16,169 nucleotides of DNA from a virus (IMGVR_UViG_2540341091_000001:1-16169); one strand, 5' to 3'; counted from the stretch's first letter, positions 1 to 15,793 are shown. Notes: generated from the sequence alone by a model not told the origin. Program-made: numbers and translations.

Positions 1-474
1 ATGTACAGTCCGGTACAAATAGCCAATAAATTCATAACGTTGGGAAACCAACATCATAATCCTCTGACCCACATGCAACTGCAGAAGCTTACTTATATTG
101 CCCATGGTTACTATTTAGCATTAACAGGTAAGCCTTTGCTCAATGAATGTGTCTCCGCGTGGAAGTACGGTCCAGTTATTCCTGGAATGTACGATGCTTT
201 CAAAGACTATGGGAATAAACCTGTTACGAATGTAGCAGTAGCTCCTTTTGGTGGCATCGTTACTATGGATCCGCAAGCAGAGAGCATTATCGGGGCTGTT
301 TATAAGTTTTACGGCTCGAAAAATGGAATTGAGTTATCAACTCTAACTCATATGCCAGGTACGCCTTGGTCACAAGCTTATAATGGTATTGGCTCGTCGA
401 TCATCTCAAATGATGCGATCAAGGCTTATTATCATGATTTATTGAATAACCGACAGCAATGTCAGGGCCTCTGA
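1..474 (+). CDS. Panacea-domain (DUF4065; GepA/SocA-like) protein, putative antitoxin or phage-associated protein; start coincides with window edge so the true N-terminus is unverified
   Basis: ORF-track translation contains the motifs I associate with the Panacea domain (LQKLTYIAHGYYLALTGKPL, AWKYGPVIP, THMPGTPW). Followed 22 bp later by a co-directional membrane-protein gene. Family assignment is from memory. Confidence 0.6.
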   Translation: MYSPVQIANKFITLGNQHHNPLTHMQLQKLTYIAHGYYLALTGKPLLNECVSAWKYGPVIPGMYDAFKDYGNKPVTNVAVAPFGGIVTMDPQAESIIGAVYKFYGSKNGIELSTLTHMPGTPWSQAYNGIGSSIISNDAIKAYYHDLLNNRQQCQGL

Positions 475-496
475 AAAAGTAATATTCAGGGATGAC

Positions 497-1045
497 ATGT
501 CTCATAATTCAGATATCTATAAACTGATCGGAGCGGCCGCAGGTGTTGAAAATGGTCGCTCTGAAGCATCCTTAAACTCTACTGACAGTCAAGAGCAGGC
601 TTTTGAATCCGCATTTGAGCCGTCTAATCATGAACGCGATGATGATTCTTCTTCAGAAAATAAGGCTATTCTGGAGGAAGAAGAGTTTGGTTCTAATACT
701 GGTGCATTGCATGAGTTTATGCAGCAGAACAGAATGGACAGTCTTCAAGCTCAGCTTGATATGCTCAAATCACAAGTACGGGATAAGATAGCTGACGCAA
801 CTGGTAAAGAAATAGACAATGAGCTCCGGACAAAAATGGCATCATTCACGGTTTGGTTTATGTCGTGTTGGTGCTTATTCGTTGTCGCAATGTTTACATC
901 GTTTCTTATTGCACATGAAGGAAAGGCTCCAGTTGAAGCGATCGTTGCATTACTAGGTACAAGTACAATTAGTATTGTTGGTTTGGTTGGTTTCGTTGTT
1001 AGTGGATTGTTCAAATCAAGAAAAGATAGTGATAAAGAAAAATAA
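497..1045 (+). CDS. hypothetical protein with acidic, Ser/Glu/Asp-rich N-terminal half and two C-terminal transmembrane helices; candidate toxin/effector partner of the Panacea protein
   Basis: ATG at 497 preceded by AGGGA at 488-492. Hydrophobic stretches WFMSCWCLFVVAMFTSFLIA and AIVALLGTSTISIVGLVGFVVSGLF. No recognisable catalytic motif. Confidence 0.5.
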   Translation: MSHNSDIYKLIGAAAGVENGRSEASLNSTDSQEQAFESAFEPSNHERDDDSSSENKAILEEEEFGSNTGALHEFMQQNRMDSLQAQLDMLKSQVRDKIADATGKEIDNELRTKMASFTVWFMSCWCLFVVAMFTSFLIAHEGKAPVEAIVALLGTSTISIVGLVGFVVSGLFKSRKDSDKEK

Positions 1046-1063
1046 CCCGTACATATACGGGTT
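1044..1063 (-). terminator. intrinsic terminator hairpin between convergent genes, serving the minus-strand PrtN-like gene
   Basis: 8-bp stem AACCCGTA (1044-1051) / TACGGGTT (1056-1063) with loop CATA; on the minus strand it is followed by TTTTT (plus-strand A-run 1036-1043). Confidence 0.4.
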
Positions 1064-1078
1064 ATCCATAGTTTTAGT

Positions 1079-1348
1079 TTAGTTATATTTTTTTTCCGTT
1101 CTGACTTTTTCCCACTCAGCTCGCCCTTCTTCCCGTCTTTTGTCAATATATTCCGCAAGATCCTGAATGTTGATGCAGCGTTTTGCTTTTTGTGATGTAC
1201 CGATGCGATATGTAGGTACAGGCAACTTACAAGCGTTTGCTTTTGCTTCTGCTGTGGCTGGACTCATACCAAAGTATTTTTGACTAACTGCTGAGAGTTC
1301 AATGTTTGGGGTATTGAATTCAGCCATCAGTAAAAACAAGGTATTCAT
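1079..1348 (-). CDS. PrtN-like (pyocin-activator family) small DNA-binding regulator
   Basis: 89 aa; ATG at 1348 with GGAG 7 nt upstream; segment GMSPATAEAKANACKLPVPTYRIGTSQKAKRCINIQDLAEYIDKRR resembles the PrtN/phage activator family as I recall it. Confidence 0.5.
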   Translation of the reverse strand: MNTLFLLMAEFNTPNIELSAVSQKYFGMSPATAEAKANACKLPVPTYRIGTSQKAKRCINIQDLAEYIDKRREEGRAEWEKVRTEKKYN

Positions 1349-1384
1349 ATCATTTCTCCATCATAACCGGCTGCACCCGGTGAG

Positions 1385-2167
1385 TTACTTATTCATTTCA
1401 ATAATATTATTTTCTATCATTGATTTATTTAAAACCAAAGAAGGAGCAAGATGGTTGTCTATTTTAAACAATGCATAACTTTTAAACTGTTGGTGATATC
1501 CGTAACTAATAAGGATGCTAGAAAAATCTCTTAATTCATCTTCTTTTAAAAAATTAAAATGAAATGGGTTGTCACCATTTATGAACAATGAAACATCTAT
1601 TATGCAGTATTTCTCTCTGTTGTCATTTGCATAGAAAAAAATATAAGACATTCTGTTTGTTAAGACAATGCCATTAAATTTTCTTATGTCTGTAGCTATT
1701 TTGTTTTCCATGTTTGGTGCCACATATTTATTTTCAGAAATACATTTAATTTCATCTCCAGATGTCGTGATTATATAAAAATGAAACTTATCATAAATAT
1801 CTAACTTAACTACGCCATCATTATTATAAAGGCTGCTAAATTTTGGTGGTTCAACTTTTAAAGAATCATAGTTCTTTAAAAGAAGAGGGGAGTCAAATTT
1901 AATAACTTGTAGTATCCCTTTACCTTCAACCTCCATATTGATTGAAGATATAGCAATTGCATTATCTCTTTTATTATTCAGGATTATGGTTGATATATGC
2001 ATGTCATATATTCTACTTGCATTTGCTGAATACGACACTGTCACCTTTTTTGATATTTTTTGCACGCCAAAATATATAGTGAAGGCAGCGGCAAGAATAG
2101 ATAAGAATTTAATGTCAAATAAGGACCATAGCCACATTAGTTGCTCAATTGCTTCAGAGTTAATCAT
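1385..2167 (-). CDS. hypothetical protein with an N-terminal transmembrane anchor, AT-rich orphan (moron-like); start codon uncertain (alternatives at 2179 or 2221)
   Basis: Long minus-strand ORF in markedly AT-rich DNA. N-terminal hydrophobic helix LMWLWSLFDIKFLSILAAAFTIYFGV. The track start at 2221 is TTG and sits upstream of the promoter predicted at 2204-2232, so an internal ATG (MINSEAIEQ...) is preferred. No known domain recognised. Confidence 0.45.
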   Translation of the reverse strand: MINSEAIEQLMWLWSLFDIKFLSILAAAFTIYFGVQKISKKVTVSYSANASRIYDMHISTIILNNKRDNAIAISSINMEVEGKGILQVIKFDSPLLLKNYDSLKVEPPKFSSLYNNDGVVKLDIYDKFHFYIITTSGDEIKCISENKYVAPNMENKIATDIRKFNGIVLTNRMSYIFFYANDNREKYCIIDVSLFINGDNPFHFNFLKEDELRDFSSILISYGYHQQFKSYALFKIDNHLAPSLVLNKSMIENNIIEMNK

Positions 2168-2203
2168 TTGCTTTACCATTATCGCTGTAATACAACACAT
2201 GTG

Positions 2204-2232
2204 TATATATACGCAATGCAATTATTTTGCAA
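2204..2232 (-). promoter_or_regulatory. candidate sigma70 promoter for the 1385-2167 gene
   Basis: Minus strand reads TTGCAA (plus 2227-2232), 17-bp spacer, TATATA (plus 2204-2209). Confidence 0.3.
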
Positions 2233-2353
2233 GTGCTTCATTTACTATCAATAGCTTCGTCACGTTATTGTTTAATGGTTCTTTATAGGGGCGGCAATAG
2301 TTAAAATTATCGCTTCCGTAAACGCCCCCGCAGGGGCATTTGCAGTAATGAAA

Positions 2354-3178
2354 TCAGGCGGTGAAAGTACCAATAAAGGTTTCTACTTTGCTGTCTTTGA
2401 ATTTCTCAACAAGCAGATCACGAAATTCGTTAGCCATTTCTTCCTGTACCGCTTCCAGCTGAATAATGCGCAGAACCAGTACAGGACGATCGCCAGTGAT
2501 AATGCTGAGGCGTAATTTAAACGGACGTTCTTTCAGACCTTCAAACGGAGCGCATTTAAATTCAAATGCCACTGGCATAATGTCTTTGGTCTTCGCTTCG
2601 ACAGACTCCATCAGGGAGCGTTTGCCGCTGAAGTCATTATCTTCAAAATCAGCGGTCTGGTTCGCTTCAATTGTGATTTTACGGATCGCCGCAGCCGCTT
2701 TGGTTGCCTGAATGGCGTCACCATTAGCATCAAAGCCCACAAGGTAGTCGGCCCAGTCTTCAATCCATTCTGCCAGTGACTTCTGGGAGTTACGCTCGCC
2801 GTTAACAGACAACAGAGCAGAGAACGGTGCTGTCTTTTTCAGTTTGAGAGTGGCGGTGTTATCTGCGTGACCTGGTTCATCAATAGTACCCAGGTTAAGC
2901 ACACTGACGGCACGCATATTATCGGCATCGATAAAGCAGCGGGTGCCTTCATCTGCAAGAACTTTAGAATAACGGGTAAAGTCATCGATGCTGGCAGTGG
3001 AAAGCGCACCACGGAAACGGAAGCGATTTAAATTAAATTTTTCCAGATCATGAATGCGGAAATTCTCAGGCAATGCCACAGCATCGGCACCAATCTTACT
3101 GATAATTTCATTAACACCCTGAGCAGAAATAAGGGCATGGATTTGATTAATTGCGGTTGCGTCTAAGTTCTGAGACAT
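2354..3178 (-). CDS. phage protein resembling YfdQ (DUF2303 family)
   Basis: 274 aa, the same length as E. coli CPS-53 YfdQ as I remember it; ATG at 3178 with AGGA about 7 nt upstream. Homology not verified. Confidence 0.55.
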
Positions 3179-3242
3179 AATAAGTCCTCACTATATAAAG
3201 ATATTCAGTGATGAGATAAATAATCAGTTTATTAGAACGATA

Positions 3243-3605
3243 TTAACGACCTGCTGCGCGGAGTTTTCCGTCAGGTTCACCGGCAAGAGTCAGTAATTGT
3301 CCCTGGTCCTCCTGCAGAATAGTCAGGCGACCACCGCGATTGACATACATCGGCGTTTCGGTGGTGTCTTCTTCGGAAATTTTCCCGCGGTTAGTCGGGC
3401 GAACATATGAGAGTTTGTGTTTGATTTTCACACGGTTCTCATCAAATGGTTCGATTTCCAGGTTGAGTGAGACCTTACCTTTGGTTTTCGTGTTCATCAC
3501 ACCGGAAGCGACTTCACTGAGAACTGCGCCGATTTTGGTTTCAAATACGCCGCCGTCCAGCTCCCCGATAAATGCCTGCACATCAGTACTGCGTTCGCTA
3601 GCCAT
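3243..3605 (-). CDS. small phage protein (about 120 aa), possibly YfdP-like
   Basis: Internal ATG at 3605 (MASERSTDVQAF...) has a strong GAGGAG Shine-Dalgarno 5-10 nt upstream. The upstream extension in the ORF track (start 3836) runs through structured non-coding DNA and is rejected. Confidence 0.5.
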   Translation of the reverse strand: MASERSTDVQAFIGELDGGVFETKIGAVLSEVASGVMNTKTKGKVSLNLEIEPFDENRVKIKHKLSYVRPTNRGKISEEDTTETPMYVNRGGRLTILQEDQGQLLTLAGEPDGKLRAAGR

Positions 3606-3653
3606 TTTGCTGCTCCTCATCATATCGACCCTGCAAGGTCGGTTGGTTTCTCC

Positions 3654-3787
3654 ACAAAACAGAGAAGAACACCTGCGGTGGCAGCCGCCCGGATGGATTG
3701 GGTTATGAGCCCGTCGTCCGGTGATGCTCTTCTCTGTTTTGTAAAAAGAGCGGTACCAGCCGGAAGCAAGTGTACAAACTGGTACCG
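3654..3787 (-). repeat. two adjacent large inverted repeats (potential RNA stem-loops) in the leader upstream of the 3243-3605 gene
   Basis: Perfect 15-bp inverted repeat ACAAAACAGAGAAGA (3654-3668) / TCTTCTCTGTTTTGT (3728-3742) enclosing 59 nt. Perfect 9-bp inverted repeat CGGTACCAG (3751-3759) / CTGGTACCG (3779-3787) enclosing 19 nt. Confidence 0.4.
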
Positions 3788-4188
3788 CCAAAGCAGTGGC
3801 TGTTGTGGTGGGGTTGTCACTCAGGCGTATGGTCAACCTGACAATCCGGTGTCCTCAACGGGGAAAGAGTAACCCCGCCATACTTACCGCCGCGCCATTT
3901 CGCGGATTACCACAACGCTGAGAGCACTTAGCCAGTTACGGCACCACACTTTGTCGCGGTTCCATAAATGCCCTCATCGTTGCACCCTGGTCTCTTCCCA
4001 GGCGTCAAACCGGATCGCCACGCTGGTTAGGCGTCTTATCAGCATCATCATTGACTTGCACATTCCGGCTACCTGGTTTGTTTGCCCGAGCAAGGAGTGG
4101 ATTGTCCCCTTTAACGTCCCCAGACCGCTAACGACGCATGTGCCATACGCCGTGTTACAACCAAATTTAGTTTAATCTTGCCTGTGTT

Positions 4189-4233
4189 ATGTATCCTATA
4201 GATACATTATGTATCTCAAGGGTACATTGTCAA
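4189..4233 (-). promoter_or_regulatory. pL-like leftward promoter overlapped by two repressor operators
   Basis: Minus strand: TTGACA (plus 4228-4233), 16-bp spacer, CATAAT (plus 4206-4211). Operator-like 17-mers TGTATC-CTATA-GATACA (4190-4206) and TGTATC-TCAAG-GGTACA (4210-4226) share a consensus with the cI-cro intergenic sites. Confidence 0.45.
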
Positions 4234-4235
4234 GT

Positions 4236-4260
4236 ATAAAAAAACCTGCCGAAGCAGGTT
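4236..4260 (-). terminator. intrinsic terminator downstream of the cI-like gene
   Basis: Stem AACCTGC (4243-4249) / GCAGGTT (4254-4260), loop CGAA; the minus strand follows with a T-run (plus A-run 4236-4242). Confidence 0.5.
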
Positions 4261-4271
4261 ATAAATATTGA

Positions 4272-4946
4272 TTAGGCCTTTATTTTGTATCTTCTTGGTT
4301 TTCCTGAGAAAATCACTGTACCAATTATAGAGCAATTACCGTTGATCTTAATGTAAGGTTCAGGCCAGTTTGGGTTTAATGCTTTGAGGTAACGCTGTGT
4401 TCCATCTTCTATCAACCGCTTGAAGGTGGTTTCGCCTGTATCGTGCATCAATGCAATAACGTCGTCACCGTGGCAGGCAGGGACTTCAGGATCAACAAAA
4501 ATCATGTCTCCCGGGCGGTACTCATCAATCATTGAATCACCAATCACCCGCAAGATATAAGTCATTTCGCCACAGGGTACAGGGCAGGGATAAGTTTCTG
4601 CTGTGCTCAAATCAACCTCAGAATAGCCAACTTCTTTCCATGCTCCGGCCTGTACCCATGATATGACAGGGACTAACGTTATTTGTTTGTTAGTGATTGA
4701 AACGTCAGGTTTTTTTGTGATGTTCGTTGTCTGGTGTTCTTGATCAAGCCATCCGACAGGCAGGTCGAAACATTTTTCGATGTGCCGTGCCATGCTGTCA
4801 CCGATATTTTTAGTTGCACCATCTCCCATAAACCTGCTGGTCTGGGTTGGCTCGCGATCAATCATGGTGGCAAAGGAAGAATTCCCGCCAACACCATCTC
4901 TCAGTTTTCTGGCGTTAGACCGCCGGATGTCATGGACTGTTTTCAT
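4272..4946 (-). CDS. cI: cI-like prophage repressor: N-terminal HTH plus C-terminal S24 (LexA-like) autopeptidase domain
   Basis: 224 aa. C-terminal domain has the Ser (VIGDSM) and Lys (TFKRL) typical of S24 self-cleaving repressors. Divergent from a cro-like gene with operators between them. No Shine-Dalgarno before the ATG, consistent with a leaderless pRM-type transcript. Confidence 0.8.
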   Translation of the reverse strand: MKTVHDIRRSNARKLRDGVGGNSSFATMIDREPTQTSRFMGDGATKNIGDSMARHIEKCFDLPVGWLDQEHQTTNITKKPDVSITNKQITLVPVISWVQAGAWKEVGYSEVDLSTAETYPCPVPCGEMTYILRVIGDSMIDEYRPGDMIFVDPEVPACHGDDVIALMHDTGETTFKRLIEDGTQRYLKALNPNWPEPYIKINGNCSIIGTVIFSGKPRRYKIKA

Positions 4947-4963
4947 AAAGAAATTAAAACCTT

Positions 4964-5030
4964 TGTACCGATAAGGTACAAGTATCTTGAAGGTTCATCT
5001 CAATCATGTAATATGTATACCGGAGGTACA
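4964..5030. promoter_or_regulatory. oR-like operator cluster with divergent pRM/pR promoters
   Basis: 17-bp sites TGTACC-GATAA-GGTACA (4964-4980) and TGTATA-CCGGA-GGTACA (5014-5030), plus a degenerate site AGTATC-TTGAA-GGTTCA (4981-4997). Candidate pRM on minus strand TTGTAC-N17-TTTAAT ends about 7 nt before the cI ATG. The 5014-5030 site overlaps the cro RBS. Confidence 0.45.
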
Positions 5031-5036
5031 TGTTGT

Positions 5037-5258
5037 ATGAAAGCGTATTGGGACTCTTTAACCAAAGAACAGCAGGGTGAGTTGGCCGGAAAAGTTGGCT
5101 CAACACCAGGCTACTTACGGCTGGTTTTCAATGGTTATAAAAAAGCCAGTTTTGTGCTGGCTAAAAAACTTGAGCAATGCACGTCAGGTGCAATTACGAA
5201 ATCTGACTTAAGACCGGATATCCCACAGCCAGTATCAGCGATTTGCTGGTTGTGGTGA
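5037..5258 (+). CDS. Cro/YdaS-like small DNA-binding protein
   Basis: 73 aa from ATG 5037 with GGAGG at 5022-5026; HTH-like segment LAGKVGSTPGYLRLVFNGYKKASFVLAKKLEQCTSGAI. The longer track ORF (4734-5258) overlaps cI antisense and is rejected. Confidence 0.6.
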   Translation: MKAYWDSLTKEQQGELAGKVGSTPGYLRLVFNGYKKASFVLAKKLEQCTSGAITKSDLRPDIPQPVSAICWLW

Positions 5259-5313
5259 TGAAGAAATCCACAGCAGGTATCACGATTAGCTGAATTTTCA
5301 TAACCCATATGCG

Positions 5314-5337
5314 GGCGCCATTTCTGGCGCCTTTTTT
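5314..5337 (+). terminator. intrinsic terminator after the cro-like gene
   Basis: Stem GGCGCCA (5314-5320) / TGGCGCC (5325-5331), loop TTTC, then TTTTTT (5332-5337). Confidence 0.55.
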
Positions 5338-5361
5338 ATTGCAGAAAAGCGAGAGGTAATT

Positions 5362-5961
5362 ATGCGTAAACTTTATGCCGCCATTTTGTCCGCAGCCATC
5401 TGTCTGGCCGTATCCGGTGCGCCTGCATGGGCGTCTGAACATCAGTCCACGCTGAGCGCGGGCTATCTTCATGCCTCGACGAACGTTCCCGGCAGCGATG
5501 ATCTGAACGGGATTAACGTGAAATACCGTTATGAGTTTACGGACACACTAGGGCTGGTGACGTCATTCAGCTATGCAGGAGACAAGAATCGCCAGCTGAC
5601 TCATTACAGCGATACCCGCTGGCATGAAGATTCCGTGCGTAACCGCTGGTTCAGCGTGATGGCGGGGCCGTCTGTGCGCGTGAATGAATGGTTCAGCGCG
5701 TATGCGATGGCGGGTGTGGCTTACAGCCGTATTTCGACTTTCTCCGGGGATTATCTCCGCGTAACTGACAACAAGGGGAAAACGCACGAAGTGCTGACCG
5801 GAAGTGATGACGGTCGCCGCAGCAACACGTCTCTGGCGTGGGGGGCTGGCGTGCAGTTTAACCCGACCGTATCCGTGGCCATTGATATTGCTTATGAAGG
5901 CTCCGGCAGTGGCGACTGGCGCACTGACGGTTTCATCGTGGGTGTCGGTTATAAGTTCTGA
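5362..5961 (+). CDS. lom: Lom (Ail/Lom family outer-membrane protein), lambda lom homologue
   Basis: 199 aa with a signal peptide; C-terminus ...AYEGSGSGDWRTDGFIVGVGYKF matches lambda Lom as I remember it; internal INVKYRYE and SVMAGP motifs; RBS GAGAGG at 5351-5356. Confidence 0.85.
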   Translation: MRKLYAAILSAAICLAVSGAPAWASEHQSTLSAGYLHASTNVPGSDDLNGINVKYRYEFTDTLGLVTSFSYAGDKNRQLTHYSDTRWHEDSVRNRWFSVMAGPSVRVNEWFSAYAMAGVAYSRISTFSGDYLRVTDNKGKTHEVLTGSDDGRRSNTSLAWGAGVQFNPTVSVAIDIAYEGSGSGDWRTDGFIVGVGYKF

Positions 5962-5988
5962 TTAGCCAGGTAACACAGTGTTATGACA

Positions 5989-6014
5989 GCCCGCCGGTTC
6001 AGGCGGGCTTTTTT
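5989..6014 (+). terminator. intrinsic terminator between lom and the tail-fibre gene
   Basis: Stem GCCCGCC (5989-5995) / GGCGGGC (6002-6008) followed by TTTTTT (6009-6014). Confidence 0.55.
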
Positions 6015-6025
6015 GTGGGGTGAAT

Positions 6026-9000
6026 ATGGCAGTAAAGATTTCAGGTGTACTGAAAGACGGTGCAGGTAAACCGGTACAGAACTGCACAATCCAGCTGAAA
6101 GCAAAACGTAACAGCACCACGGTGGTGGTGAACACGGTGGCATCTGAAAATCCGGATGAAGCCGGGCGTTACAGCATGGACGTTGAGTACGGTCAGTACA
6201 GCGTTATTCTGTTGGTGGAAGGCTTCCCGCCATCGCATGCCGGGACCATCACCGTGTATGAAGACTCACAACCGGGTACGCTGAATGATTTTCTCGGTGC
6301 CATGACGGAGGATGATGCTCGTCCGGAGGCACTGCGCCGCTTTGAACTGATGGTGGAAGAGGTGGCGCGTAACGCGTCCGCAGTGGCACAGAACACGGCA
6401 GCCGCGAAGAAGTCAGCCAGCGATGCCAGCACATCAGCCCGGGATGCGTCGGCTTCAAAAGAGGCAGCAAAATCATCAGAAATGAGCGCAGCCTCTTCGG
6501 AAACGGCGGCAGGAAATTCCGCGAAGGCCGCAAAAACGTCTGAGACGAATGCGGATAACAGCGCACAGGCGGCAGCGGCCTCACAAACTGCATCGGCAAA
6601 CTACGCGACAGCCGCCAAAAAATCAGAAACCAACGCGAAAAATAGCGAGGCAGCAACAAAGAGCAGTGAAACAAACGCGGCGAAATCTGCGGCGGACGCA
6701 CTTAATTATCGCAACCAGGCGCAATTAATTGTTGGCGATAATATCGGTCTTGGCTCAGCCCCGCGTGATTGTCCTGATATTTCCGGCAACCCATCAGGGT
6801 ATATCGGATTTATGCGCATTATGAGTAATGCAAAAGGCTTTCCATCGATTGCATCCGGTGAAAGCAGTCTTACGGGGTTTATTAGTCAGGTAGATGGAAC
6901 ACCAGCGTATACAGGTGTATTTCAGGGATGGGCTACGCGCTCGCTTTATACTTATCGCTGGAATCCGACAATAGGCCCGCAATGGACACGCCACGCAAGA
7001 AAAGATGAGGTTATCCGATTTCAGCGTTCAAGCGACACAAGAACCATCATTTTATCTACTGACGTTCAGGCGGACGGCTGTTACTTACAGGTTGATGCTG
7101 ACGGTCAGTGGGGCGCATTTAACCCTAAAGCTGGTAGATGGCAACCGCTCGCAGTTGCGCAAGGTGGCACAGGGGCGAATGATGCAAGTACAGCGCGCTC
7201 TAAACTTGAAGTCATGTTTGAAGCAAAAACTGGCCTTGATGCGAATACGAACTTAAACGATATAAAAGGTACTACAGCCGGTTTTTATTACCAACCAATG
7301 TCTGCCAACGCAAAGCCAGAACTAAATTACCCGATACAGCTTGCTGGTGCATTGTTAGTGCAAAGAACTGGTGCTAATGGTAGTGATGGTTGTATCCAGA
7401 GCTATTTTGTATATAACAATTCATCAATTCTTTATAGAAGGATATATACCAGCACACAAGGTTGGAGTGTATGGAAAAAAATAGTATTAACAGAAAGAAT
7501 TGAAGAAGGCGAATCGACTACTTACGTTTATTCGAATTACTCACCATCAGCGCCACGACTTCAGGTGTCAACATCTGGATTGTGGGGTTGCCATAACGGA
7601 TCGTCATGGGTTCCATTACCTATTGGACAAGGAGGCACTAATGCGGCAACTGTTGATGGTGCCAGAACGAATCTTGGCTTAGGTAGGAACAACAGCCCTC
7701 AACTTAACAGTCTATTTCTTGATAGATATAGTGATTCGACCAATACATACACATCTAGTGGAATTCTCCATACAAGACTGTTAGCAACTGACAGCACTGT
7801 GCGTCTTGGTGCTGATATGTATGTTGAGACTTTATCAAATGAGCCAGGTCAATTAACAATAAGGTTTACATACGATGGTTCAACTGGTGCTTCAAAATAT
7901 CTAAACCTTAACTCAGAAGGTAATTTAATTGTAGATAGTGCGATACTGAGATCAACGGTTGAAAAACCTTTACAAATAAGGAGCGCTAACCCAGCAATAA
8001 GATTTAATGAAACAGATCGCCCGGCTAACACGCCTACTTATACTCTCATTGCTAATGCTGGTGACTGGTTTATTCAGAAACGCGATTATGATGATGCCGG
8101 AAGCGTTAGTAACGCAATTGCATATAATTTCGCAAACGACAGAATTGATGTGCAAAATCTTAAAGCGTCTGGGTTAATTACAGCTAACTCAGGAATCGCA
8201 ACATTAACAGGTCATGACTGGAACGCTCAGCATACTGATAACGTCGACAAATTTAGACCAATTGCAGGCAGTACAAACGGCCCGGCAGGCTCTATGGTTC
8301 TTGGCGGCATTCATGTTCAATTTAGTAAAAATTATGCTGTGCAGTTCGGAGGCCGCAATTCCGGTTTTTGGGGAAGAACAATTGAAAATGGAACGACGCA
8401 GGAATGGAAGAAATTACTAACAGTAGACGATCTCAATTCATCTACCGATCTTGCTGTCAGGTCATTAACCACATCTAACCCGGTAAAATCTGGCGGAGGG
8501 CGAATTGATGTCCTTGGAAGCACGTCAGACTATAGCAAAATGGATTGCTTTGTACGTGGGTTTGATAGCACCGGTAATTCTCTCGCGTGGGCGTTGGGTT
8601 CATCAGTCGGCGTAAGTAAGATGCTGTCGCTAAAAAATTTCTTTAGCGGAGCTGAGATACTGCTAAATGGTAATGACGGCGCGGTTCAACTCAAAACAGG
8701 TGCTGTTAACGGTGCTAAAGCGCAGGCGCTCACTATCAACAAGGATGAGGTTAACTCAACTGTTGATTTAACTCTTACAAAACAAACAGGGACTGGCAAT
8801 CGTTTTGTTTTACAGAACTTAGGTAATACAGAACTACCATTTGCTGTCAAGGTGTGGGGTTCAGGTGATCGACAAAACGTTTTTGAGGTTGGAACGTCTG
8901 CCGCGTATCTGTTTTATGCTCAAAAAACATCGTCAGGTCAGCTGTTTGATGTAAACGGTGCTATTAACTGTACAACACTGAATCAGTTATCAGACCGCGA

Positions 9001-9367
9001 GCTGAAAGACAATATTCAGATTATCAGTGACGCAACCGAAGCTATCCGTAAAATGAACGGGTACACCTACACACTTAAGGAAAACGGACTGCCTTACGCT
9101 GGTGTTATTGCACAGGAAGCAATGGAGGCAATACCGGAAGCGGTAGGCTCATTCACTCATTACGGTAAAGAGTTGCAGGGACCAACGGTTGACGGCAATG
9201 AATTACGTGAAGAAACACGTTATCTGAATGTTGACTACGCCGCCGTGACGGGCTTACTTGTTCAGGTCGCCCGTGAAACAGATGATCGCGTTACCGCGCT
9301 GGAAGAAGAAAACGCAGAATTAAAACAAAGATTATCTGCAATTGAGGCGGCGCTTGCCTCTAAATAA
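6026..9367 (+). CDS. stf: side tail fibre: lambda Stf-like N-terminus, divergent central/distal region, C-terminal intramolecular-chaperone (peptidase S74-like) domain
   Basis: N-terminus MAVKISGVLKDG...GRYSMDVEYGQYSV...HAGTITVYEDSQPGTLNDFL is near-identical to lambda Stf as I recall it. Real ATG is 6026 (the track begins at a GTG at 6020). C-terminal 125 aa (SDRELKDNI...TALEEENAELKQRL) resemble the self-cleaving chaperone domain of endosialidase-type fibres. Confidence 0.85.
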   Translation: MAVKISGVLKDGAGKPVQNCTIQLKAKRNSTTVVVNTVASENPDEAGRYSMDVEYGQYSVILLVEGFPPSHAGTITVYEDSQPGTLNDFLGAMTEDDARPEALRRFELMVEEVARNASAVAQNTAAAKKSASDASTSARDASASKEAAKSSEMSAASSETAAGNSAKAAKTSETNADNSAQAAAASQTASANYATAAKKSETNAKNSEAATKSSETNAAKSAADALNYRNQAQLIVGDNIGLGSAPRDCPDISGNPSGYIGFMRIMSNAKGFPSIASGESSLTGFISQVDGTPAYTGVFQGWATRSLYTYRWNPTIGPQWTRHARKDEVIRFQRSSDTRTIILSTDVQADGCYLQVDADGQWGAFNPKAGRWQPLAVAQGGTGANDASTARSKLEVMFEAKTGLDANTNLNDIKGTTAGFYYQPMSANAKPELNYPIQLAGALLVQRTGANGSDGCIQSYFVYNNSSILYRRIYTSTQGWSVWKKIVLTERIEEGESTTYVYSNYSPSAPRLQVSTSGLWGCHNGSSWVPLPIGQGGTNAATVDGARTNLGLGRNNSPQLNSLFLDRYSDSTNTYTSSGILHTRLLATDSTVRLGADMYVETLSNEPGQLTIRFTYDGSTGASKYLNLNSEGNLIVDSAILRSTVEKPLQIRSANPAIRFNETDRPANTPTYTLIANAGDWFIQKRDYDDAGSVSNAIAYNFANDRIDVQNLKASGLITANSGIATLTGHDWNAQHTDNVDKFRPIAGSTNGPAGSMVLGGIHVQFSKNYAVQFGGRNSGFWGRTIENGTTQEWKKLLTVDDLNSSTDLAVRSLTTSNPVKSGGGRIDVLGSTSDYSKMDCFVRGFDSTGNSLAWALGSSVGVSKMLSLKNFFSGAEILLNGNDGAVQLKTGAVNGAKAQALTINKDEVNSTVDLTLTKQTGTGNRFVLQNLGNTELPFAVKVWGSGDRQNVFEVGTSAAYLFYAQKTSSGQLFDVNGAINCTTLNQLSDRELKDNIQIISDATEAIRKMNGYTYTLKENGLPYAGVIAQEAMEAIPEAVGSFTHYGKELQGPTVDGNELREETRYLNVDYAAVTGLLVQVARETDDRVTALEEENAELKQRLSAIEAALASK
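6380..6710 (+). repeat. in-frame Ala/Ser/Thr-rich tandem peptide repeats within stf
   Basis: Translation shows repeated units such as AAKTSETNADNS, AAKKSETNAKNS, ATKSSETNAAKS, as in lambda Stf. Confidence 0.4.
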
Positions 9368-9373
9368 TATTAA

Positions 9374-9396
9374 GGGGCTGTGCGCCCCGTTTTATT
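9374..9396 (+). terminator. putative intrinsic terminator after stf
   Basis: Stem GGGGC (9374-9378) / GCCCC (9384-9388) followed by GTTTTATT. Confidence 0.4.
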
Positions 9397-9403
9397 GGGT
9401 AGG

Positions 9404-9697
9404 ATGAAAATGGGTATAACACCTTTCCTTCATGCACTTTGTGCTGTGGCTGCGCAGATACTGGTGGGGCTTTTTACCGGAAACTGGGTTTACGGAGCGA
9501 TAGCCAGTTGTACGTTCTTCATTGCGGGCGAACACACCCAAGCATAATATCGCTGGATTGAAATGTTCGGGCATGGCAAGCGGATTAACATGCCGTGGTG
9601 GGGCGGTTTTGATCCACGCGCATGGGATGTGGCAAGCCTGATGGATTTTGCTGTGCCGATGGTAGCGTGTCTTCTGATCTGGCTGTTGATCCGTTGA
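9404..9697 (+). pseudogene. small hydrophobic (membrane) protein gene interrupted by an in-frame TAA at 9545-9547
   Basis: Frame from ATG 9404 gives MKMGITPFLHALCAVAAQILVGLFTGNWVYGAIASCTFFIAGEHTQA, then TAA, then continues in the same frame for 49 codons (YRWIEMFGHGKRINMPWWGGFDPRAWDVASLMDFAVPMVACLLIWLLIR) to TGA at 9695-9697. Not in the ORF track because each half is under 60 aa. Confidence 0.35.
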
Positions 9698-9705
9698 ACA
9701 TAAAA

Positions 9706-9741
9706 AGCCGCAGCAACTTGCCATGGCAGGATACTGCGGCT
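9706..9741. terminator. putative bidirectional terminator between the small membrane-protein gene and the convergent RT gene
   Basis: 8-bp stem AGCCGCAG (9706-9713) / CTGCGGCT (9734-9741) with a 20-nt loop containing the palindrome TGCCATGGCA; A-run upstream and T-rich DNA downstream. Confidence 0.3.
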
Positions 9742-9804
9742 GGTTTGTGAGTTTAAATAGTGTGTTTATTGCGATATATTTTAATGACTTAATGGATTAC
9801 ATAT

Positions 9805-10668
9805 CTATGATATTCCTGAAATATCCTCTTCAAGCTCTTTTACTGATTTCGCAATTTTAAATTTAAACTTCCTCTCTATTTCACTATTGCTAAGTTTTTT
9901 TTCCTTCTCTTTACCTATCCACATAGAAACAAGTTCTCGTTTCTGAGATATATGTAGATTGTCAAAGTTAGGTATGTATTTAAAAGTCTCCGCTCTACCT
10001 CTGCGGAGTTCATAGAAAGTTTTAATCAAAGATTTTGGTTTTATTTCTGATGAAAGGCCGAATCGGCGGATAAGATTATTGATAGTATGATTAACAGAGC
10101 GAAGTTGAGCTGTTGAGGTTATTTGTGAGAAGTACGATACCCATCCCAATCGTTTACCTTCAAACACACATCCCGTAATTCTGAGATTTAGTTTCCACTG
10201 ACAATATGCAACAGCTCGTTCTTTATCACGCTTACTTTTAGCTTGTAGTAGAGCGTGCCTATATGCAGTAAAAATTTTTGCTAAGGATGACTCAAATCTA
10301 AGAATGCTCTCATGTTTTATCAATAATTCTCGATTTTCTATGTGGTATCCCAAAAAGTTAAAACTTTCATCCAAACTGCCTACTTTGGATTTTGAGTTCT
10401 CTTCATTTAATGGATGTGGGTTTAAATTTAATGATTGAAGCTTATCAATGATATGAGAAGCTATTTTTGTTGCTTGATATTTTGGTGTTAAAATAAGAAT
10501 GTCATCAACGTATCGCATGTACCATATGTCATGCATTTTATTGATTTCATCATCGAAATTAGATAGTGATATTTCAGCTAAAATGTTTGATATCGCTAAT
10601 CCCTGAGGTACTCCTCTGGTATTATTAGGGATACCTTTGCTTCCTGTGGTTCCACTTACAGTAGGCAC
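9805..10668 (-). CDS. reverse transcriptase, C-terminal segment (motifs 3-7 and a 170-aa C-terminal extension); in the -1 frame relative to the N-terminal segment
   Basis: Translation has GVPQGLAISNILAEI (motif 3/4), YMRYVDDILIL (the YxDD active site) and FNFLGYHI (motif 7). The track start is a GTG; this frame is open upstream to a TAG at 10708-10710, so it spans the A6G site of the upstream segment. Confidence 0.8.
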   Translation of the reverse strand: MPTVSGTTGSKGIPNNTRGVPQGLAISNILAEISLSNFDDEINKMHDIWYMRYVDDILILTPKYQATKIASHIIDKLQSLNLNPHPLNEENSKSKVGSLDESFNFLGYHIENRELLIKHESILRFESSLAKIFTAYRHALLQAKSKRDKERAVAYCQWKLNLRITGCVFEGKRLGWVSYFSQITSTAQLRSVNHTINNLIRRFGLSSEIKPKSLIKTFYELRRGRAETFKYIPNFDNLHISQKRELVSMWIGKEKEKKLSNSEIERKFKFKIAKSVKELEEDISGIS

Positions 10669-10685
10669 GATTAATGATGATGTTA

Positions 10686-11174
10686 TTAACTGTCTAATTT
10701 CTTTTTTCTAATTTTATTTTTTATTGCATTAATTATCAATTTATGTTCAATTGAAGGATAGAAACTTTTAAGATCTATTTTTGCATATTCAGCATATAGA
10801 CTGTTGTTTAATGCTTCTTTCAATGAGTCAATTACTGTATGTGGTAGTTTTAATCTGGACTTAGGATATATTTCCGTAAGGCATTCACAGAGAGCTCTAA
10901 GAGTAATTCTGTCCCTAGCAGTTGGTATGGAAATCTGTCTGGGTGTAGAGTTAGCGCCTTTAGATATTAATTTTTCTTTATATGCTGTAAATTTGTAATT
11001 GCCAGAATTAACCTTTTCAAAAATGAAAGTGATCTCATTTTTTATTGTCAAATCAAGTTTTGATGGGCGAATCCGATCTATGCCAATCGCTCCTGATTCT
11101 TTGATTTTTTCAGAGTATACTTTTAGAAGATTTTTTTTCGAGAATGACTTTTTAAAAATTCTGCTTGCAGTCAT
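10686..11174 (-). CDS. reverse transcriptase, N-terminal segment (fingers, motifs 1-2); frame ends 15 nt after an A_AAA_AAG heptamer
   Basis: ATG at 11174 (the track begins at a TTG at 11180). Motifs GIDRIRPSKL, PRQISIPTARDRITLRAL and AKIDLKSFYPSI. Start overlaps the 3' end of the upstream membrane-protein gene by 23 nt. Confidence 0.75.
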   Translation of the reverse strand: MTASRIFKKSFSKKNLLKVYSEKIKESGAIGIDRIRPSKLDLTIKNEITFIFEKVNSGNYKFTAYKEKLISKGANSTPRQISIPTARDRITLRALCECLTEIYPKSRLKLPHTVIDSLKEALNNSLYAEYAKIDLKSFYPSIEHKLIINAIKNKIRKKKLDS

Positions 11175-11703
11175 AGTCAATCCAAAGATATATTAATGGG
11201 AGTATATAAAGTGCGGCAGTAATAAATATTCGAAGTAATATCCATAAAATAACAATTATTTTTTCTTTTTGTGTGGGGATCCTCGTCTTAAGTCCAACTT
11301 GAGTTACCCTTGAAATTTTATCATCTATGTCACGGTGATTCTCAACCTCATTGAGCAAATTAAAATATTTTTCTTTCTGTTCAAGAGATAACTGTTGACT
11401 GGTGGTAATGTCAAAATAGAGTCGCTGTAGTGCAATATAATTCCTTCTCATGGCTATTGCTCGACCACGAAAATCTAGGTTAGATACGATCAGAGAAATA
11501 CCCAGTAGAGCCACTGAAAGTATCGCCGCAACGACATCTGTATTATCTCCTAGAACCTTTGGAAATCGCAACGTTACAATTGAAAGTACCGCACTCAATA
11601 TAGCATACCAAACGAGGATAAATTGAGAGTGTTTTTCAAGCCATTCTAGTCGATGGTGCGCTTGGATACGTGCTTTATATGTAAACCAAATATTGTCATG
11701 CAT
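11152..11703 (-). CDS. multi-pass membrane protein (two N-terminal TM helices plus a C-terminal hydrophobic helix), possibly SLATT-like; candidate effector partner of the RT
   Basis: 183 aa; hydrophobic segments FILVWYAILSAVLSIVTL, VVAAILSVALLGISLIVS and IIVILWILLRIFITAALYILPLIYLW around a charged helical middle. Translationally coupled to the RT. SLATT assignment is an unverified guess from architecture. Confidence 0.6.
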   Translation of the reverse strand: MHDNIWFTYKARIQAHHRLEWLEKHSQFILVWYAILSAVLSIVTLRFPKVLGDNTDVVAAILSVALLGISLIVSNLDFRGRAIAMRRNYIALQRLYFDITTSQQLSLEQKEKYFNLLNEVENHRDIDDKISRVTQVGLKTRIPTQKEKIIVILWILLRIFITAALYILPLIYLWIDYDCKQNF

Positions 11704-11727
11704 AAAAGATCCTTTTTAAAAGCGGAA

Positions 11728-11808
11728 GGGGCAGGATATATTGGAACCGTTGAACATCCTGCCCGGCAGGATCAGTGAGCATAAGCTCAACAGTAAAATA
11801 TTACTGTT
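11728..11808 (-). other. structured 5' leader of the membrane-protein/RT operon (candidate cis-regulatory RNA or RT-associated ncRNA)
   Basis: 9-bp stem GGGCAGGAT (11728-11736) / ATCCTGCCC (11755-11763) with an 18-nt loop; 20-bp palindrome AACAGTA-AAATAT-TACTGTT (11789-11808). Confidence 0.3.
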
Positions 11809-11865
11809 CATTATCAGAGCCGCCCTTGCATGCGCAAGAGGAAAAACCTGCCCCATCCCTTTGAA

Positions 11866-11894
11866 TTATTACAATTTAATGATCTTAAAGTCAA
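11866..11894 (-). promoter_or_regulatory. candidate sigma70 promoter for the membrane-protein/RT operon
   Basis: Minus strand TTGACT (plus 11889-11894), 17-bp spacer, TAATAA (plus 11866-11871); about 30 bp from the IS2 left end. Confidence 0.3.
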
Positions 11895-12015
11895 TACAAG
11901 TGAATGGTGTCCAGAGATGATGAATAGACTGGCCCCCTGAATCTCCAGACAACCAGTATCACTTAAATAAGTGATAGTCTTAATACTAGTTTTTAGACTA
12001 GTCATTGGAGAACAG

Positions 12016-12381
12016 ATGATTGATGTCTTAGGGCCGGAGAAACGCAGACGGCGTACCACACAGGAAAAGATCGCAATTGTTCAGCAGAGCTTTGAACCGG
12101 GGATGACGGTCTCCCTCGTTGCCCGGCAACATGGTGTAGCAGCCAGCCAGTTATTTCTCTGGCGTAAGCAATACCAGGAAGGAAGTCTTACTGCTGTCGC
12201 CGCCGGAGAACAGGTTGTTCCTGCCTCTGAACTTGCTGCCGCCATGAAGCAGATTAAAGAACTCCAGCGCCTGCTCGGCAAGAAAACGATGGAAAATGAA
12301 CTCCTCAAAGAAGCCGTTGAATATGGACGGGCAAAAAAGTGGATAGCGCACGCGCCCTTATTGCCCGGGGATGGGGAGTAA
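12016..12381 (+). CDS. insC: IS2 transposase OrfA (InsC)
   Basis: [41 protein letters not shown]... is the IS2 InsC sequence; ATG 12016 with GGAG at 12007-12010. The track ORF from 11971 is an upstream extension. Confidence 0.9.
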
Positions 12382-13244
12382 GCTTAGTCAGCCGTTGTCT
12401 CCGGGTGTCGCGTGCGCAGTTGCACGTCATTCTCAGACGAACCGATGACTGGATGGATGGCCGCCGCAGTCGTCACACTGATGATACGGATGTGCTTCTC
12501 CGTATACACCATGTTATCGGAGAGCTGCCCACGTATGGTTATCGTCGGGTATGGGCGCTGCTTCGCAGACAGGCAGAACTTGATGGTATGCCTGCGATCA
12601 ATGCCAAACGTGTTTACCGGATCATGCGCCAGAATGCGCTGTTGCTTGAGCGAAAACCTGCTGTACCGCCATCGAAACGGGCACATACAGGCAGAGTGGC
12701 CGTGAAAGAAAGCAATCAGCGATGGTGCTCTGACGGGTTCGAGTTCTGCTGTGATAACGGAGAGAGACTGCGTGTCACGTTCGCGCTGGACTGCTGTGAT
12801 CGTGAGGCACTGCACTGGGCGGTCACTACCGGCGGCTTCAACAGTGAAACAGTACAGGACGTCATGCTGGGAGCGGTGGAACGCCGCTTCGGCAACGATC
12901 TTCCGTCGTCTCCAGTGGAGTGGCTGACGGATAATGGTTCATGCTACCGGGCTAATGAAACACGCCAGTTCGCCCGGATGTTGGGACTTGAACCGAAGAA
13001 CACGGCGGTGCGGAGTCCGGAGAGTAACGGAATAGCAGAGAGCTTCGTGAAAACGATAAAGCGTGACTACATCAGTATCATGCCCAAACCAGACGGGTTA
13101 ACGGCAGCAAAGAACCTTGCAGAGGCGTTCGAGCATTATAACGAATGGCATCCGCATAGTGCGCTGGGTTATCGCTCGCCACGGGAATATCTGCGGCAGC
13201 GGGCTTGTAATGGGTTAAGTGATAACAGATGTCTGGAAATATAG
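12339..13244 (+). CDS. insD: IS2 transposase OrfB (InsD), normally made as an OrfAB fusion by -1 frameshift at A6G (12333-12339)
   Basis: 301-aa DDE-type integrase-fold protein matching IS2 InsD; slippery A_AAA_AAG at 12333-12339 lies in the orfA/orfB overlap. Confidence 0.9.
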
Positions 13245-13260
13245 GGGCAAATCCATGAAC

Positions 13261-13509
13261 TTAATGAACAAACCACTCGTCAGCAGACTCCCAGGTATCT
13301 TTCAGAGTCTCCTGAACAAAAGTTTTAGCTGAATCTTTATCAGCGGTGCGCGTAACAGAAAGGCCATCGTTGCTGGTGGCTTTTACGATCACTTCTACAT
13401 CGTCATAACGTTTACTGATGCGTCGGGTTAATTCTTCCTTTAACGCATCCACAGCACCGGTTGGCATTTTAGTCATTTTTTCTTTGGCTATGCAGATTTC
13501 AATACGCAT
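13261..13509 (-). CDS. dinI: DinI-like SOS-inducible protein (prophage-borne)
   Basis: 82 aa [37 protein letters not shown]...[11 protein letters not shown] resembles DinI; GGGGA Shine-Dalgarno 5 nt upstream; LexA boxes immediately upstream. Confidence 0.8.
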
Positions 13510-13523
13510 AAAAGTCCCCTACA

Positions 13524-13567
13524 CTGTATTTGTATACAGTATTATTTTTAACTGTATGGATAAACAG
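13524..13567 (-). promoter_or_regulatory. two tandem LexA (SOS) boxes in the dinI-like promoter region
   Basis: CTGTATTTGTATACAG (13524-13539) and CTGTATGGATAAACAG (13552-13567) both fit CTGT-N8-ACAG; the first, with flanks, is near-palindromic ACTGTAT...ATACAGTA. Confidence 0.7.
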
Positions 13568-13569
13568 TG

Positions 13570-14667
13570 TCAAGAGGTCTTATTTCTGCTCCTTTGGAGT
13601 TCTTCAAAACGATTATGTAAAGATTTCGGATACAGTTCGGTATATACCTGCCATAGCACGTTTAATGAACGATGCCCTGTAACCTGAGCGACTTCCTCAA
13701 TACTAAAACCAGCCTCAAATAAGCGACTTGCCCCTTCTCTACGCAAATCATGGTATCTCAGATCTTTAATACCTAATTTGCTTCTTACCCTCTGAAATCC
13801 TGCGGTAACAGAAGTGCTGTTATATGGAAAAATGAATTCTGATTTTTTGGGTTGTCGCTGGACGATATCCCAGGCTTCCCCAAGCAAGGCAACTTTCATA
13901 TGGTTGCCTTCCTTTTTACGTGGATCTTTCCTGTCTCTTACTAGTATAGATTTTTGTTCCTGGTCGAGATCTTCCCATCGTAACCGGCATACTTCTCCGA
14001 TTCGCATACAGGACCACACAGAAAATTTGAGGATATCAACGAACGGAATTTTTGAGCATTTATGAGTAGATCGTTGTTGAAGGCCTTCAATGAGCATGTT
14101 CAGTTCATCAGATGCTGGTCTACGATTACGACGGTTTGATTTACCAATCAAACCGAGTTTAAGTAGATATGGACGAGCGCTTTTCGCCGGGTTTGATGTG
14201 TAATTGATTCCGTATACAGGTTTTGCCGCATCCAGAACACTGCCAAGATAACTAACATCGTGGCTGACTGTTGCTGGGCCTGCACCAGCGTTGTTTCTTA
14301 GCCTGCAATGTTCAATTACGTCATTTTCTGTCAGTTCAGATAGTTTGATCGCGGAGATGTCACTATCCATAAGCAGTTCCAGCACATATCTTTTAGTACG
14401 GCCTGCTTTACCTCCGGCATTTGGGTCATTTAAATATTTGTGTAGTAAGTCACGGACTGTAAGTCCGTCAACAGCATTTGATGATGGAATGCCATATAGA
14501 TCTAATTCCATCACTTTCTGTGCGCCCCATGTTTTGGCATGAGCATGTTTAGGGAATGTTTTGCTTTCCCTGTAAGTGATAACACCTTTTTCTTTGATAA
14601 TCACATTACAGCGATAGCGTGGTGTGCCATCGGATTTTAGTCGTTTCTCTATGTTATAGTACGCCAT
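13570..14667 (-). CDS. int: tyrosine recombinase / phage integrase, dusA-associated type
   Basis: 365 aa; C-terminal catalytic region with RYHDLRREG, HRS and conserved Tyr (WQVYTELY). Divergent from and directly adjacent to the 5' end of dusA. GAGG Shine-Dalgarno 7 nt upstream of ATG 14667. Confidence 0.9.
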   Translation of the reverse strand: MAYYNIEKRLKSDGTPRYRCNVIIKEKGVITYRESKTFPKHAHAKTWGAQKVMELDLYGIPSSNAVDGLTVRDLLHKYLNDPNAGGKAGRTKRYVLELLMDSDISAIKLSELTENDVIEHCRLRNNAGAGPATVSHDVSYLGSVLDAAKPVYGINYTSNPAKSARPYLLKLGLIGKSNRRNRRPASDELNMLIEGLQQRSTHKCSKIPFVDILKFSVWSCMRIGEVCRLRWEDLDQEQKSILVRDRKDPRKKEGNHMKVALLGEAWDIVQRQPKKSEFIFPYNSTSVTAGFQRVRSKLGIKDLRYHDLRREGASRLFEAGFSIEEVAQVTGHRSLNVLWQVYTELYPKSLHNRFEELQRSRNKTS

Positions 14668-14755
14668 TACACGACCTCGTTATTTCGGGTTCCCATAAAG
14701 CGTGGGAACCTGTGCGGGAACCTAACGCGAGAAAAATAGCCTGAAATGTTCAAAA

Positions 14756-15793
14756 ATGCACGATAATCCTGAAACACAGAAAACTAATCAAACCAGCGTG
14801 ATGCCTGAAAAAACTGGCGCTTACTGGAGTTCTCGGTTTAGCATTGCTCCTATGCTCGACTGGACGGACAGACATTGCCGCTATTTCTTGCGTCTGCTTT
14901 CCCGCAATACGTTGCTGTATACCGAAATGGTGACCACAGGGGCGATTATTCACGGTAAAGGTGATTACCTGGCGTACAGTGAAGAAGAACATCCGGTAGC
15001 GTTGCAACTCGGCGGTAGCGATCCGGCGGCGCTGGCACAGTGTGCGAAGCTGGCAGAAGCGCGTGGATATGATGAGATCAACCTGAATGTCGGCTGCCCG
15101 TCTGACCGGGTGCAGAACGGCATGTTTGGTGCGTGTCTGATGGGTAATGCGCAGCTGGTTGCCGACTGCGTGAAAGCGATGCGCGATGTGGTGTCGATTC
15201 CAGTGACGGTGAAAACGCGTATTGGCATCGATGACCAGGACAGCTATGAATTTCTCTGCGATTTCATCAACACCGTTTCCGGCAAAGGCGAGTGTGAGAT
15301 GTTTATCATCCACGCACGTAAAGCCTGGCTTTCGGGGTTAAGCCCGAAAGAAAACCGTGAAATCCCGCCGCTCGATTATCCGCGTGTGTATCAACTGAAG
15401 CGTGACTTTCCGCATCTGACAATGTCGATTAACGGTGGTATCAAGTCGCTGGAAGAGGCCAAAGCACACCTGCAACATATGGATGGCGTGATGGTCGGGC
15501 GCGAGGCGTATCAGAATCCGGGTATTCTGGCGGCGGTAGACCGGGAGATCTTTGGTTCCTCGGATACCGATGCCGATCCAGTGGCGGTAGTGCGCGCCAT
15601 GTATCCGTACATTGAGCGTGAACTCAGCCAGGGGACGTATCTCGGCCATATTACCCGGCATATGTTGGGCTTGTTCCAGGGTATTCCTGGCGCGCGGCAG
15701 TGGCGGCGTTATTTAAGTGAAAATGCCCATAAAGCGGGTGCAGACATTAATGTGCTGGAACACGCGCTCAAACTGGTGGCGGATAAGCGTTAA
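14756..15793 (+). CDS. dusA: tRNA-dihydrouridine synthase A; 5' end probably contributed or reconstituted by the integrated element (alternative start ATG 14801)
   Basis: Translation matches E. coli DusA throughout ([37 protein letters not shown], ...ALKLVADKR); followed by pspG as in the E. coli chromosome. Confidence 0.9.

Follow-up and report, generated by a model that had tools for sequence, protein, structure and literature searches.

The window, by which we mean the whole stretch of 16,169 nt analysed here, opens with two consecutive genes on the plus strand. The first, panA (1-474, plus strand), encodes a stand-alone Panacea (DUF4065) antitoxin of 157 amino acids with a pI of 8.5 (PF13274, WP_000287252.1). 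The second, panT (497-1045, plus strand), encodes a 182-amino-acid membrane toxin of cluster T3, which is listed in RefSeq as WP_000019186.1. The genes are arranged as a bicistron with an intergenic spacer (475-496, plus strand) of exactly 22 nt, the distance given in the original prediction, and a Shine-Dalgarno-like AGGGA is located at 488-492, 4 nt upstream of the panT ATG.

It had been pointed out beforehand that the first gene begins at the window edge, with the suggestion to examine the sequence upstream. The ATG of panA is indeed base 1 of the window, and the missing upstream region could be read from genomes that are identical at this locus. In these genomes the ATG is preceded by the ribosome-binding site GAGGAGGG, and base 1 is therefore the true start of panA. 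The 300 nt upstream (within L002 5592-6000, the upstream region in one such genome) include a 105-nt fragment of the 5′ end of dusA, which represents the attL side, and a perfect sigma-70 consensus promoter, TTGACA-16-TATAAT, 158-185 nt before the ATG (L002 5816-5843). The promoter of panAT thus falls outside the window, upstream of base 1. At the other end, a bidirectional hairpin terminator, AUAACCCGUACAUAUACGGGUUAU (1040-1067, both strands), overlaps the panT stop codon and is common to panT and the convergently transcribed xis gene; terminator-like sites were located on both strands (L002 7042-7065 and 7067-7040, equivalent to window 1042-1065 and 1067-1040). As it possesses its own promoter and terminator, panAT represents an autonomous operon in the attL-proximal position of a 'moron'.

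The prophage and its other accessory genes

Nearly the entire window (1-14750) consists of a decayed lambdoid prophage integrated at dusA, a remnant of approximately 15 kb, in which panAT is the first operon inside attL. It precedes xis (1079-1348, minus strand), which is convergent to panT and encodes an excisionase identified by profile matches to the PrtN family and phrog_1300. Comparison with the full-length prophage of AR434 yielded a match restricted to window positions 1-5222, and the junction near 5222 lies inside the cro-like YdaS gene, 16 nt before the gene end. Past the junction the window continues directly with lom (5362-5961), followed by the gene for a tail fibre of 1115 amino acids (6020-9367) and by accessory genes; the genes for replication and lysis as well as those for the head and most of the tail are missing. 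The order after the lom/tail-fibre genes is a reverse transcriptase and SLATT pair, an IS2 element, the integrase gene (13570-14667, minus strand) and an intact dusA (14756-15793).

The reverse transcriptase is of the defence-type class UG17 (PADLOC RT_UG17; region 9805-11703, minus strand) and adjoins a SLATT_5/RTasSLATT two-TM effector gene (11152-11703, minus strand). It is broken into two ORFs in the window (10686-11180 and 9805-10668) because a run of T near 10702 is 1 nt shorter than in NZ_OW848980.1, for which RefSeq records an intact protein of 456 amino acids. Either the gene is truly inactivated by this frameshift, or a sequencing error in the homopolymer has produced the split. Toward the attR end, the IS2 (IS3-family) transposase with its programmed frameshift (approximately 11971-13244, plus strand) is inserted with the SLATT gene on one side and the DinI-like and integrase genes on the other.

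Between xis and yfdQ a further ORF of 278 amino acids was observed (1385-2221, minus strand; the RefSeq call is 260 amino acids, WP_000610754.1). The stretch around it is very AT-rich with 28% GC compared to 41-49% in the surroundings. The ORF belongs to phrog_14996 and has a hydrophobic N-terminal segment, and searches against Pfam, NCBIfam and PADLOC yielded zero matches. In PhiR47_1 and several other sampled genomes the slot between xis and yfdQ is filled instead by exonuclease VIII, ea22 and similar genes, and the ORF looks like a swapped-in accessory gene. An Rfam scan of the whole window returned zero families reaching the gathering score. Further ORFs overlapping panAT, two antisense (121-276 and 751-1158, minus strand) and two out of frame (603-791 and 819-956), were rejected as spurious, because the substitutions follow the reading frames of panA and panT.

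Features of PanA and PanT

The assignment of the first gene product to Panacea/DUF4065 had been made from the sequence with a profile search proposed as a check. This search clearly supported it, with a match of PanA to Pfam PF13274 (SocA_Panacea) at E=5.9e-18 and 66.3 bits (cut-off 25.7) that spans positions 1-112 of the 113 in the profile. The motifs W54-K-Y56-G-P-V59 and L-T-H117-x-P-G-T-P-W are conserved among five PanA proteins partnered with toxins of the T3 PanT family, and PanA is identical at the protein level across most sampled genomes and alleles. For PanT, an end-to-end match to phrog_13343 was obtained (E=2.9e-111), but searches against Pfam, NCBIfam and PADLOC gave no significant match, in agreement with the earlier description of a partner lacking a recognisable toxin domain. 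In PADLOC-DB v2.0.0, zero families were found at E<=0.01 for PanT and likewise for PanA. A search for relatives with solved structures returned only chance-level matches, a WD40 protein (E=0.3) and a lamin coiled coil (E=0.09).

PanT is built from an N-terminal soluble part and two C-terminal hydrophobic helices. Residues 1-75 (497-721, plus strand) are acidic, Ser/Asn-rich and mostly disordered, and are probably cytoplasmic; they comprise 17 D/E against 4 K/R, giving a net charge of -13, together with 22 S/T/N/Q, and in an alignment of 43 homologues this region is variable in both sequence and length. Residues 76-113 (722-835, plus strand) form the helix preceding TM1, which is the putative docking site for PanA by analogy to the Bartonella pair described below. 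Among the soluble parts of the protein this helix is under the strongest constraint, its pN/pS of 0.08 (seven alleles) being below the values of both other segments. The helix is closed by the motif G103-x-x-I-D-N-x-L-R111, in which G103, I106, D107, N108, L110 and R111 are invariant among the 43 homologues.

TM1 (approximately residues 114-139; 836-913, plus strand) is indicated by hydropathy and by a model helix with a pLDDT of 77-85, and TM2 (approximately residues 146-172, IVALLGTSTISIVGLVGFVVSGLF; 932-1012, plus strand) by hydropathy and the alignment. Kyte-Doolittle windows of 19 residues exceeding 1.6 are confined to residues 114-140 and 145-172. Together with the net charge and the model, this agrees with the original prediction of an acidic N-terminal half and two C-terminal transmembrane helices, and the earlier description of the two genes has proved accurate throughout. 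Invariant or near-invariant positions include W125, C126, F128 and V129 of TM1 and nearly all of the TM2 stretch IALLGTSTISIVGLVGFVVSGLFK; columns 150-173 are invariant or nearly so across the 43 homologues, the identity of which goes down to 31%. TM2 is rich in the small residues Gly, Ser and Thr, a composition that would be compatible with tight helix-helix packing and an oligomeric pore. An AlphaFold2 model calculated with the 43 homologues showed disorder at residues 18-52, a helix at 68-139, a loop at 140-145 and a second helix at 146-178. The overall confidence of this model is low (mean pLDDT 60, pTM 0.27), with values of 77-85 in the membrane region and below 50 at residues 19-53. The loop between the TM helices is short and slightly acidic (AHEGKAPVE), and the C-terminal tail is basic (KSRKDSDKEK). 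Following the positive-inside rule, we infer that PanT adopts an N-in/C-in hairpin, which would leave the 113 N-terminal residues in the cytoplasm and within reach of PanA.

Among seven alleles pN/pS was 0.04 for panA and 0.20 for panT; both genes are under purifying selection, and neither is a chance ORF. The PanT alleles of the sampled genomes vary mainly in the acidic region and in TM1. In the allele of E. coli ET120 (WP_370602600.1, L003:897-1454) an in-frame duplication of three residues, VGL, was observed within TM2.

The published E. coli PanA-PanT pair and its relatives

In Kurata et al. 2022 (PNAS 119:e2102212119), Table 1 lists a validated pair from E. coli STEC O31, WP_000287252.1 as antitoxin and WP_000019185.1 as toxin, with the mode of action 'Membrane' (PMC8832971). 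The supplementary row for this pair gives toxin cluster T3, the order A|T, a gap of 22 nt, the status 'TA' and the flag 'NotPhage' (PMC8832971). PanA of the window is 100% identical to WP_000287252.1 by alignment, and PanT is 97% identical over its full length to WP_000019185.1, which was found in STEC1588. At the identical locus of AR434, RefSeq annotates WP_000287252.1 (Panacea domain-containing protein) and WP_000019186.1 (hypothetical protein), and the GenBank record of PhiR47_1 (PV340566.1) labels the same two genes 'PanA antitoxin' and 'PanT toxin'. The two toxin alleles share one 90% protein cluster with 109 members. They differ by six substitutions, E61A, V130A, A131G, T134V, A144P and S178G, of which four lie in or directly after TM1 and three within it; all six are conservative and leave the invariant columns of the family untouched.

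The STEC O31 pair also shares with the window pair the gene order, the 22-nt spacer, the species and the prophage position in every genome examined. It differs in the six conservative PanT substitutions and in the flag 'NotPhage', whereas the pair described here is prophage-borne. Two of the features by which PanAT systems in the sense of Kurata et al. are recognised, a Panacea domain and a same-strand two-gene layout with a short gap, are present in the window. The placement in T3 follows from the full-length identity to WP_000019185.1, with which charge, hydrophobic windows and model helices agree. The window pair is thus almost certainly the PanAT toxin-antitoxin module of cluster T3 already known from E. 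coli, forming an accessory operon at the attL end of the prophage. By this sequence identity the locus is evidently a rediscovery of a published and validated system. The original reading of a PanA-PanT-like toxin-antitoxin pair is hereby confirmed, whereas its suggestion of a new partner type has to be abandoned in view of the near identity of PanT to a validated toxin.

Among 5,426 complete genomes of E. coli, 78 contain DNA identical to window 1-1100, in a single copy each and always on the chromosome, and PanT with exactly this sequence is encoded on over 900 contigs. In addition, panAT is present in isolated phages, namely PhiR47_1, the Stx phage 1720a-02 and phiSTEC1575-Stx2k; inducible phages, Stx2 phages included, carry the module. 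Its presence in a prophage and in isolated phages indicates that the flag 'NotPhage' is outdated.

Synteny was analysed for four PanT homologues with 65, 48, 40 and 36% identity, which derive from Enterobacter, Providencia and a metagenome. In all four cases a Panacea gene encoding 153-157 amino acids is located 21-44 nt upstream, and the order of PanA followed by PanT was thus shown to be strict across Enterobacterales in this four-locus sample. Identity of PanA to the window protein drops together with that of PanT (75/69, 61/43, 45/39 and 50/38%), and the two genes form one coherent module whose members co-diverge. Known or candidate defence genes adjoin three of these four T3 loci. At the Providencia locus (L013:2502-6495) these are methylase and specificity genes of a type I RM system. 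In two P2-like prophages panAT is located between gpA and the portal gene, adjoining a reverse transcriptase of 586 amino acids in one (L015:2489-5724) and a CBASS DncV-like cyclase with Cap15 in the other (L017:2495-5962). The gpA-portal position figures in the P2 literature as a hotspot for anti-phage systems.

Mode of action

The activity of the pair has been characterized experimentally for PanT_Esc.col. Expressed in E. coli, this PanT is toxic, and its own PanA neutralises it (PMC8832971, Table 1 and Fig. 2B). The test of toxicity and neutralisation suggested with the original prediction has accordingly been carried out already, on near-identical proteins. Induction stops growth and inhibits transcription, translation and replication indiscriminately, an effect shared by the uncoupler CCCP and by HokB, a membrane toxin with a comparable metabolic-labelling profile (PMC8832971). 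Microscopy with DiSC3(5) and SYTOX Green demonstrated inner-membrane depolarisation and raised permeability, which the authors read as large pores (PMC8832971). In a 10 x 10 cross-test PanAs efficiently protected solely against their cognate toxins, and ClpXP and Lon were dispensable for neutralisation by the PanAs tested (PMC8832971). Stable PanA:PanT complexes were obtained by pull-down for five pairs, the E. coli pair not being among them (PMC8832971).

How PanA may contact its toxin is suggested by the work of Ernits et al. 2023, who modelled a compositionally similar pair from Bartonella, a membrane toxin and the stand-alone Panacea antitoxin belonging to it (PMC10440598). This pair from Bartonella apis/choladocola (T12/NetFlax D11) resembles the present one in combining a stand-alone Panacea antitoxin with a small toxin that carries a charged N-terminal region and C-terminal TM helices (PMC10440598). 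The Bartonella toxin depolarises and permeabilises the membrane, as published for PanT_Esc.col. It belongs to a cluster different from T3, and homology of T12/D11 to T3 is regarded as no more than possible by Kurata et al. (PMC8832971). The exchanges Y56A and H120E in the Bartonella PanA abolished neutralisation (PMC10440598), which supports direct contact of the Panacea domain with the unstructured N-terminal region and the short pre-TM helix of that toxin. Judging from numbering and motif position, Y56 and H117 of the window PanA are plausibly the equivalents of Bartonella Y56 and H120. The putative docking site at PanT residues 76-113 is likewise transferred from the Bartonella PanT:PanA interface tested by mutagenesis.

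We therefore propose a working model as follows. PanT would insert as an N-in/C-in helical hairpin with the acidic N-terminus and the conserved pre-TM helix facing the cytoplasm. The small basic PanA might then bind this helix and the N-terminal region directly, in a type II-like neutralisation analogous to that of the Bartonella pair, and so block assembly of PanT into a pore via the invariant Gly/Ser/Thr-rich TM2. Loss of PanA, or its displacement by a trigger, would free PanT, and the membrane potential would collapse. Like the type I toxin HokB, SLATT/2TM effectors and phage holins, PanT kills by inserting helices into the membrane, the potential of which is lost. In contrast to Hok, PanT is much larger and is controlled by a protein rather than by an antisense RNA; unlike holins and SLATT/2TM effectors, it is encoded outside a lysis cassette and matches no such profile. 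A function as holin or in lysis was rejected, as holin Pfam matches are absent and panT maps to the interval from attL to xis, outside a lysis module.

Possible biological roles

The toxin-antitoxin mechanism would be compatible with a role in anti-phage abortive infection, a reading which we put forward tentatively. The lysogen would express panAT, and an invading phage might inactivate or titrate PanA, or the Panacea domain might sense a phage cue; the PanT pores would then kill the cell before the invading phage could finish its cycle. Such a role fits the position of the operon, flanked by attL and xis at the edge of the prophage and provided with its own consensus promoter, which is typical for lysogenic conversion genes. 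The type I RM genes, the reverse transcriptase and the CBASS cyclase with Cap15 that adjoin other family members point in the same direction, as does the UG17 reverse transcriptase and SLATT defence pair kept by the window prophage itself. Ernits et al. have moreover hypothesized that Panacea senses a trigger (PMC10440598). Nevertheless, this association derives from four neighbourhoods and is anecdotal rather than statistical, and the PADLOC v2 models match neither PanA nor PanT. The searchable literature contained no phage-challenge or role experiments on T3 PanAT; the search for phage-defence tests of Panacea/PanAT found just the two papers of the Hauryliuk/Atkinson groups and preprints.

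Alternatively, panAT might serve prophage addiction or stabilisation, which appears rather doubtful. Type II toxin-antitoxin modules classically act by post-segregational killing: upon loss of the element the labile PanA would vanish and the residual PanT would kill the cell. This would account for the survival of the module in a remnant lacking the genes for replication, lysis and most structural proteins, since the prophage has a deletion reaching from the cro-like gene as far as lom yet panAT is intact, and it is in line with the invariance of the PanA protein among most alleles. However, neutralisation by PanA is independent of Lon and ClpXP (PMC8832971), and intact inducible phages also carry panAT. 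In the searchable literature no reports on PanA turnover were found. Killing after excision would penalise phage induction only if excision preceded lysis, an argument that is uninformative either way. The addiction and abortive-infection roles are mutually compatible and do not exclude each other.

It is very improbable that the allele of the window is inactive or attenuated, with the six substitutions abolishing the pore and the pair being a decaying passenger of a dead prophage. The prophage is degraded, the neighbouring defence reverse transcriptase is frameshifted, and the differences to the validated allele are concentrated in TM1 and in the loop that leads to TM2. Nevertheless, these are conservative exchanges (V/A, A/G, T/V, A/P in the loop, S/G and E/A) outside the invariant columns, the exact protein is present on more than 900 contigs, and the pN/pS of 0.20 argues for continued constraint. 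In addition, panA is intact and identical, as would be expected if the toxin were still dangerous.

A SocAB-like type VI system, in which the Panacea protein would serve as an adaptor for proteolysis and hand the toxin to ClpXP, was rejected as hardly credible: Panacea is the domain of the Caulobacter antitoxin SocA, and the best NCBIfam match of PanA is SocA_antitoxin (NF047745, E=1e-27), but its 97 bits are far under the equivalog cut-off of 190, SocA is the ClpXP adaptor for a DnaN-binding toxin whereas the partner here is a pore-forming membrane protein unrelated to SocB, and ClpXP and Lon were dispensable for the PanAs tested (PMC8832971). An already catalogued defence system was likewise rejected, as PADLOC returned zero matches for PanA, PanT and the neighbouring 278-amino-acid ORF.

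Publication of the pair dates from 2022 and covered its toxicity, its neutralisation and the membrane as target of the toxin, and PanA and PanT already appear by name in public phage records; the remaining interest is modest and concerns specialists in toxin-antitoxin systems and phage defence. The 'NotPhage' label of the original paper needs correction, and the placement at the prophage edge together with RM, CBASS and reverse-transcriptase neighbours makes a defence role directly testable. With due reserve, we suggest that T3 PanAT may be a phage-borne abortive-infection system excluding competing phages, with the stand-alone Panacea domain as the sensor of an infection cue and PanT as the pore-forming executioner. 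Its carriers would be dusA-integrating lambdoid phages, including Stx2 phages, and P2-like phages with the module in the gpA-portal variable region. Secondarily, panAT might also help decayed prophage remnants such as this one to persist in the chromosome.
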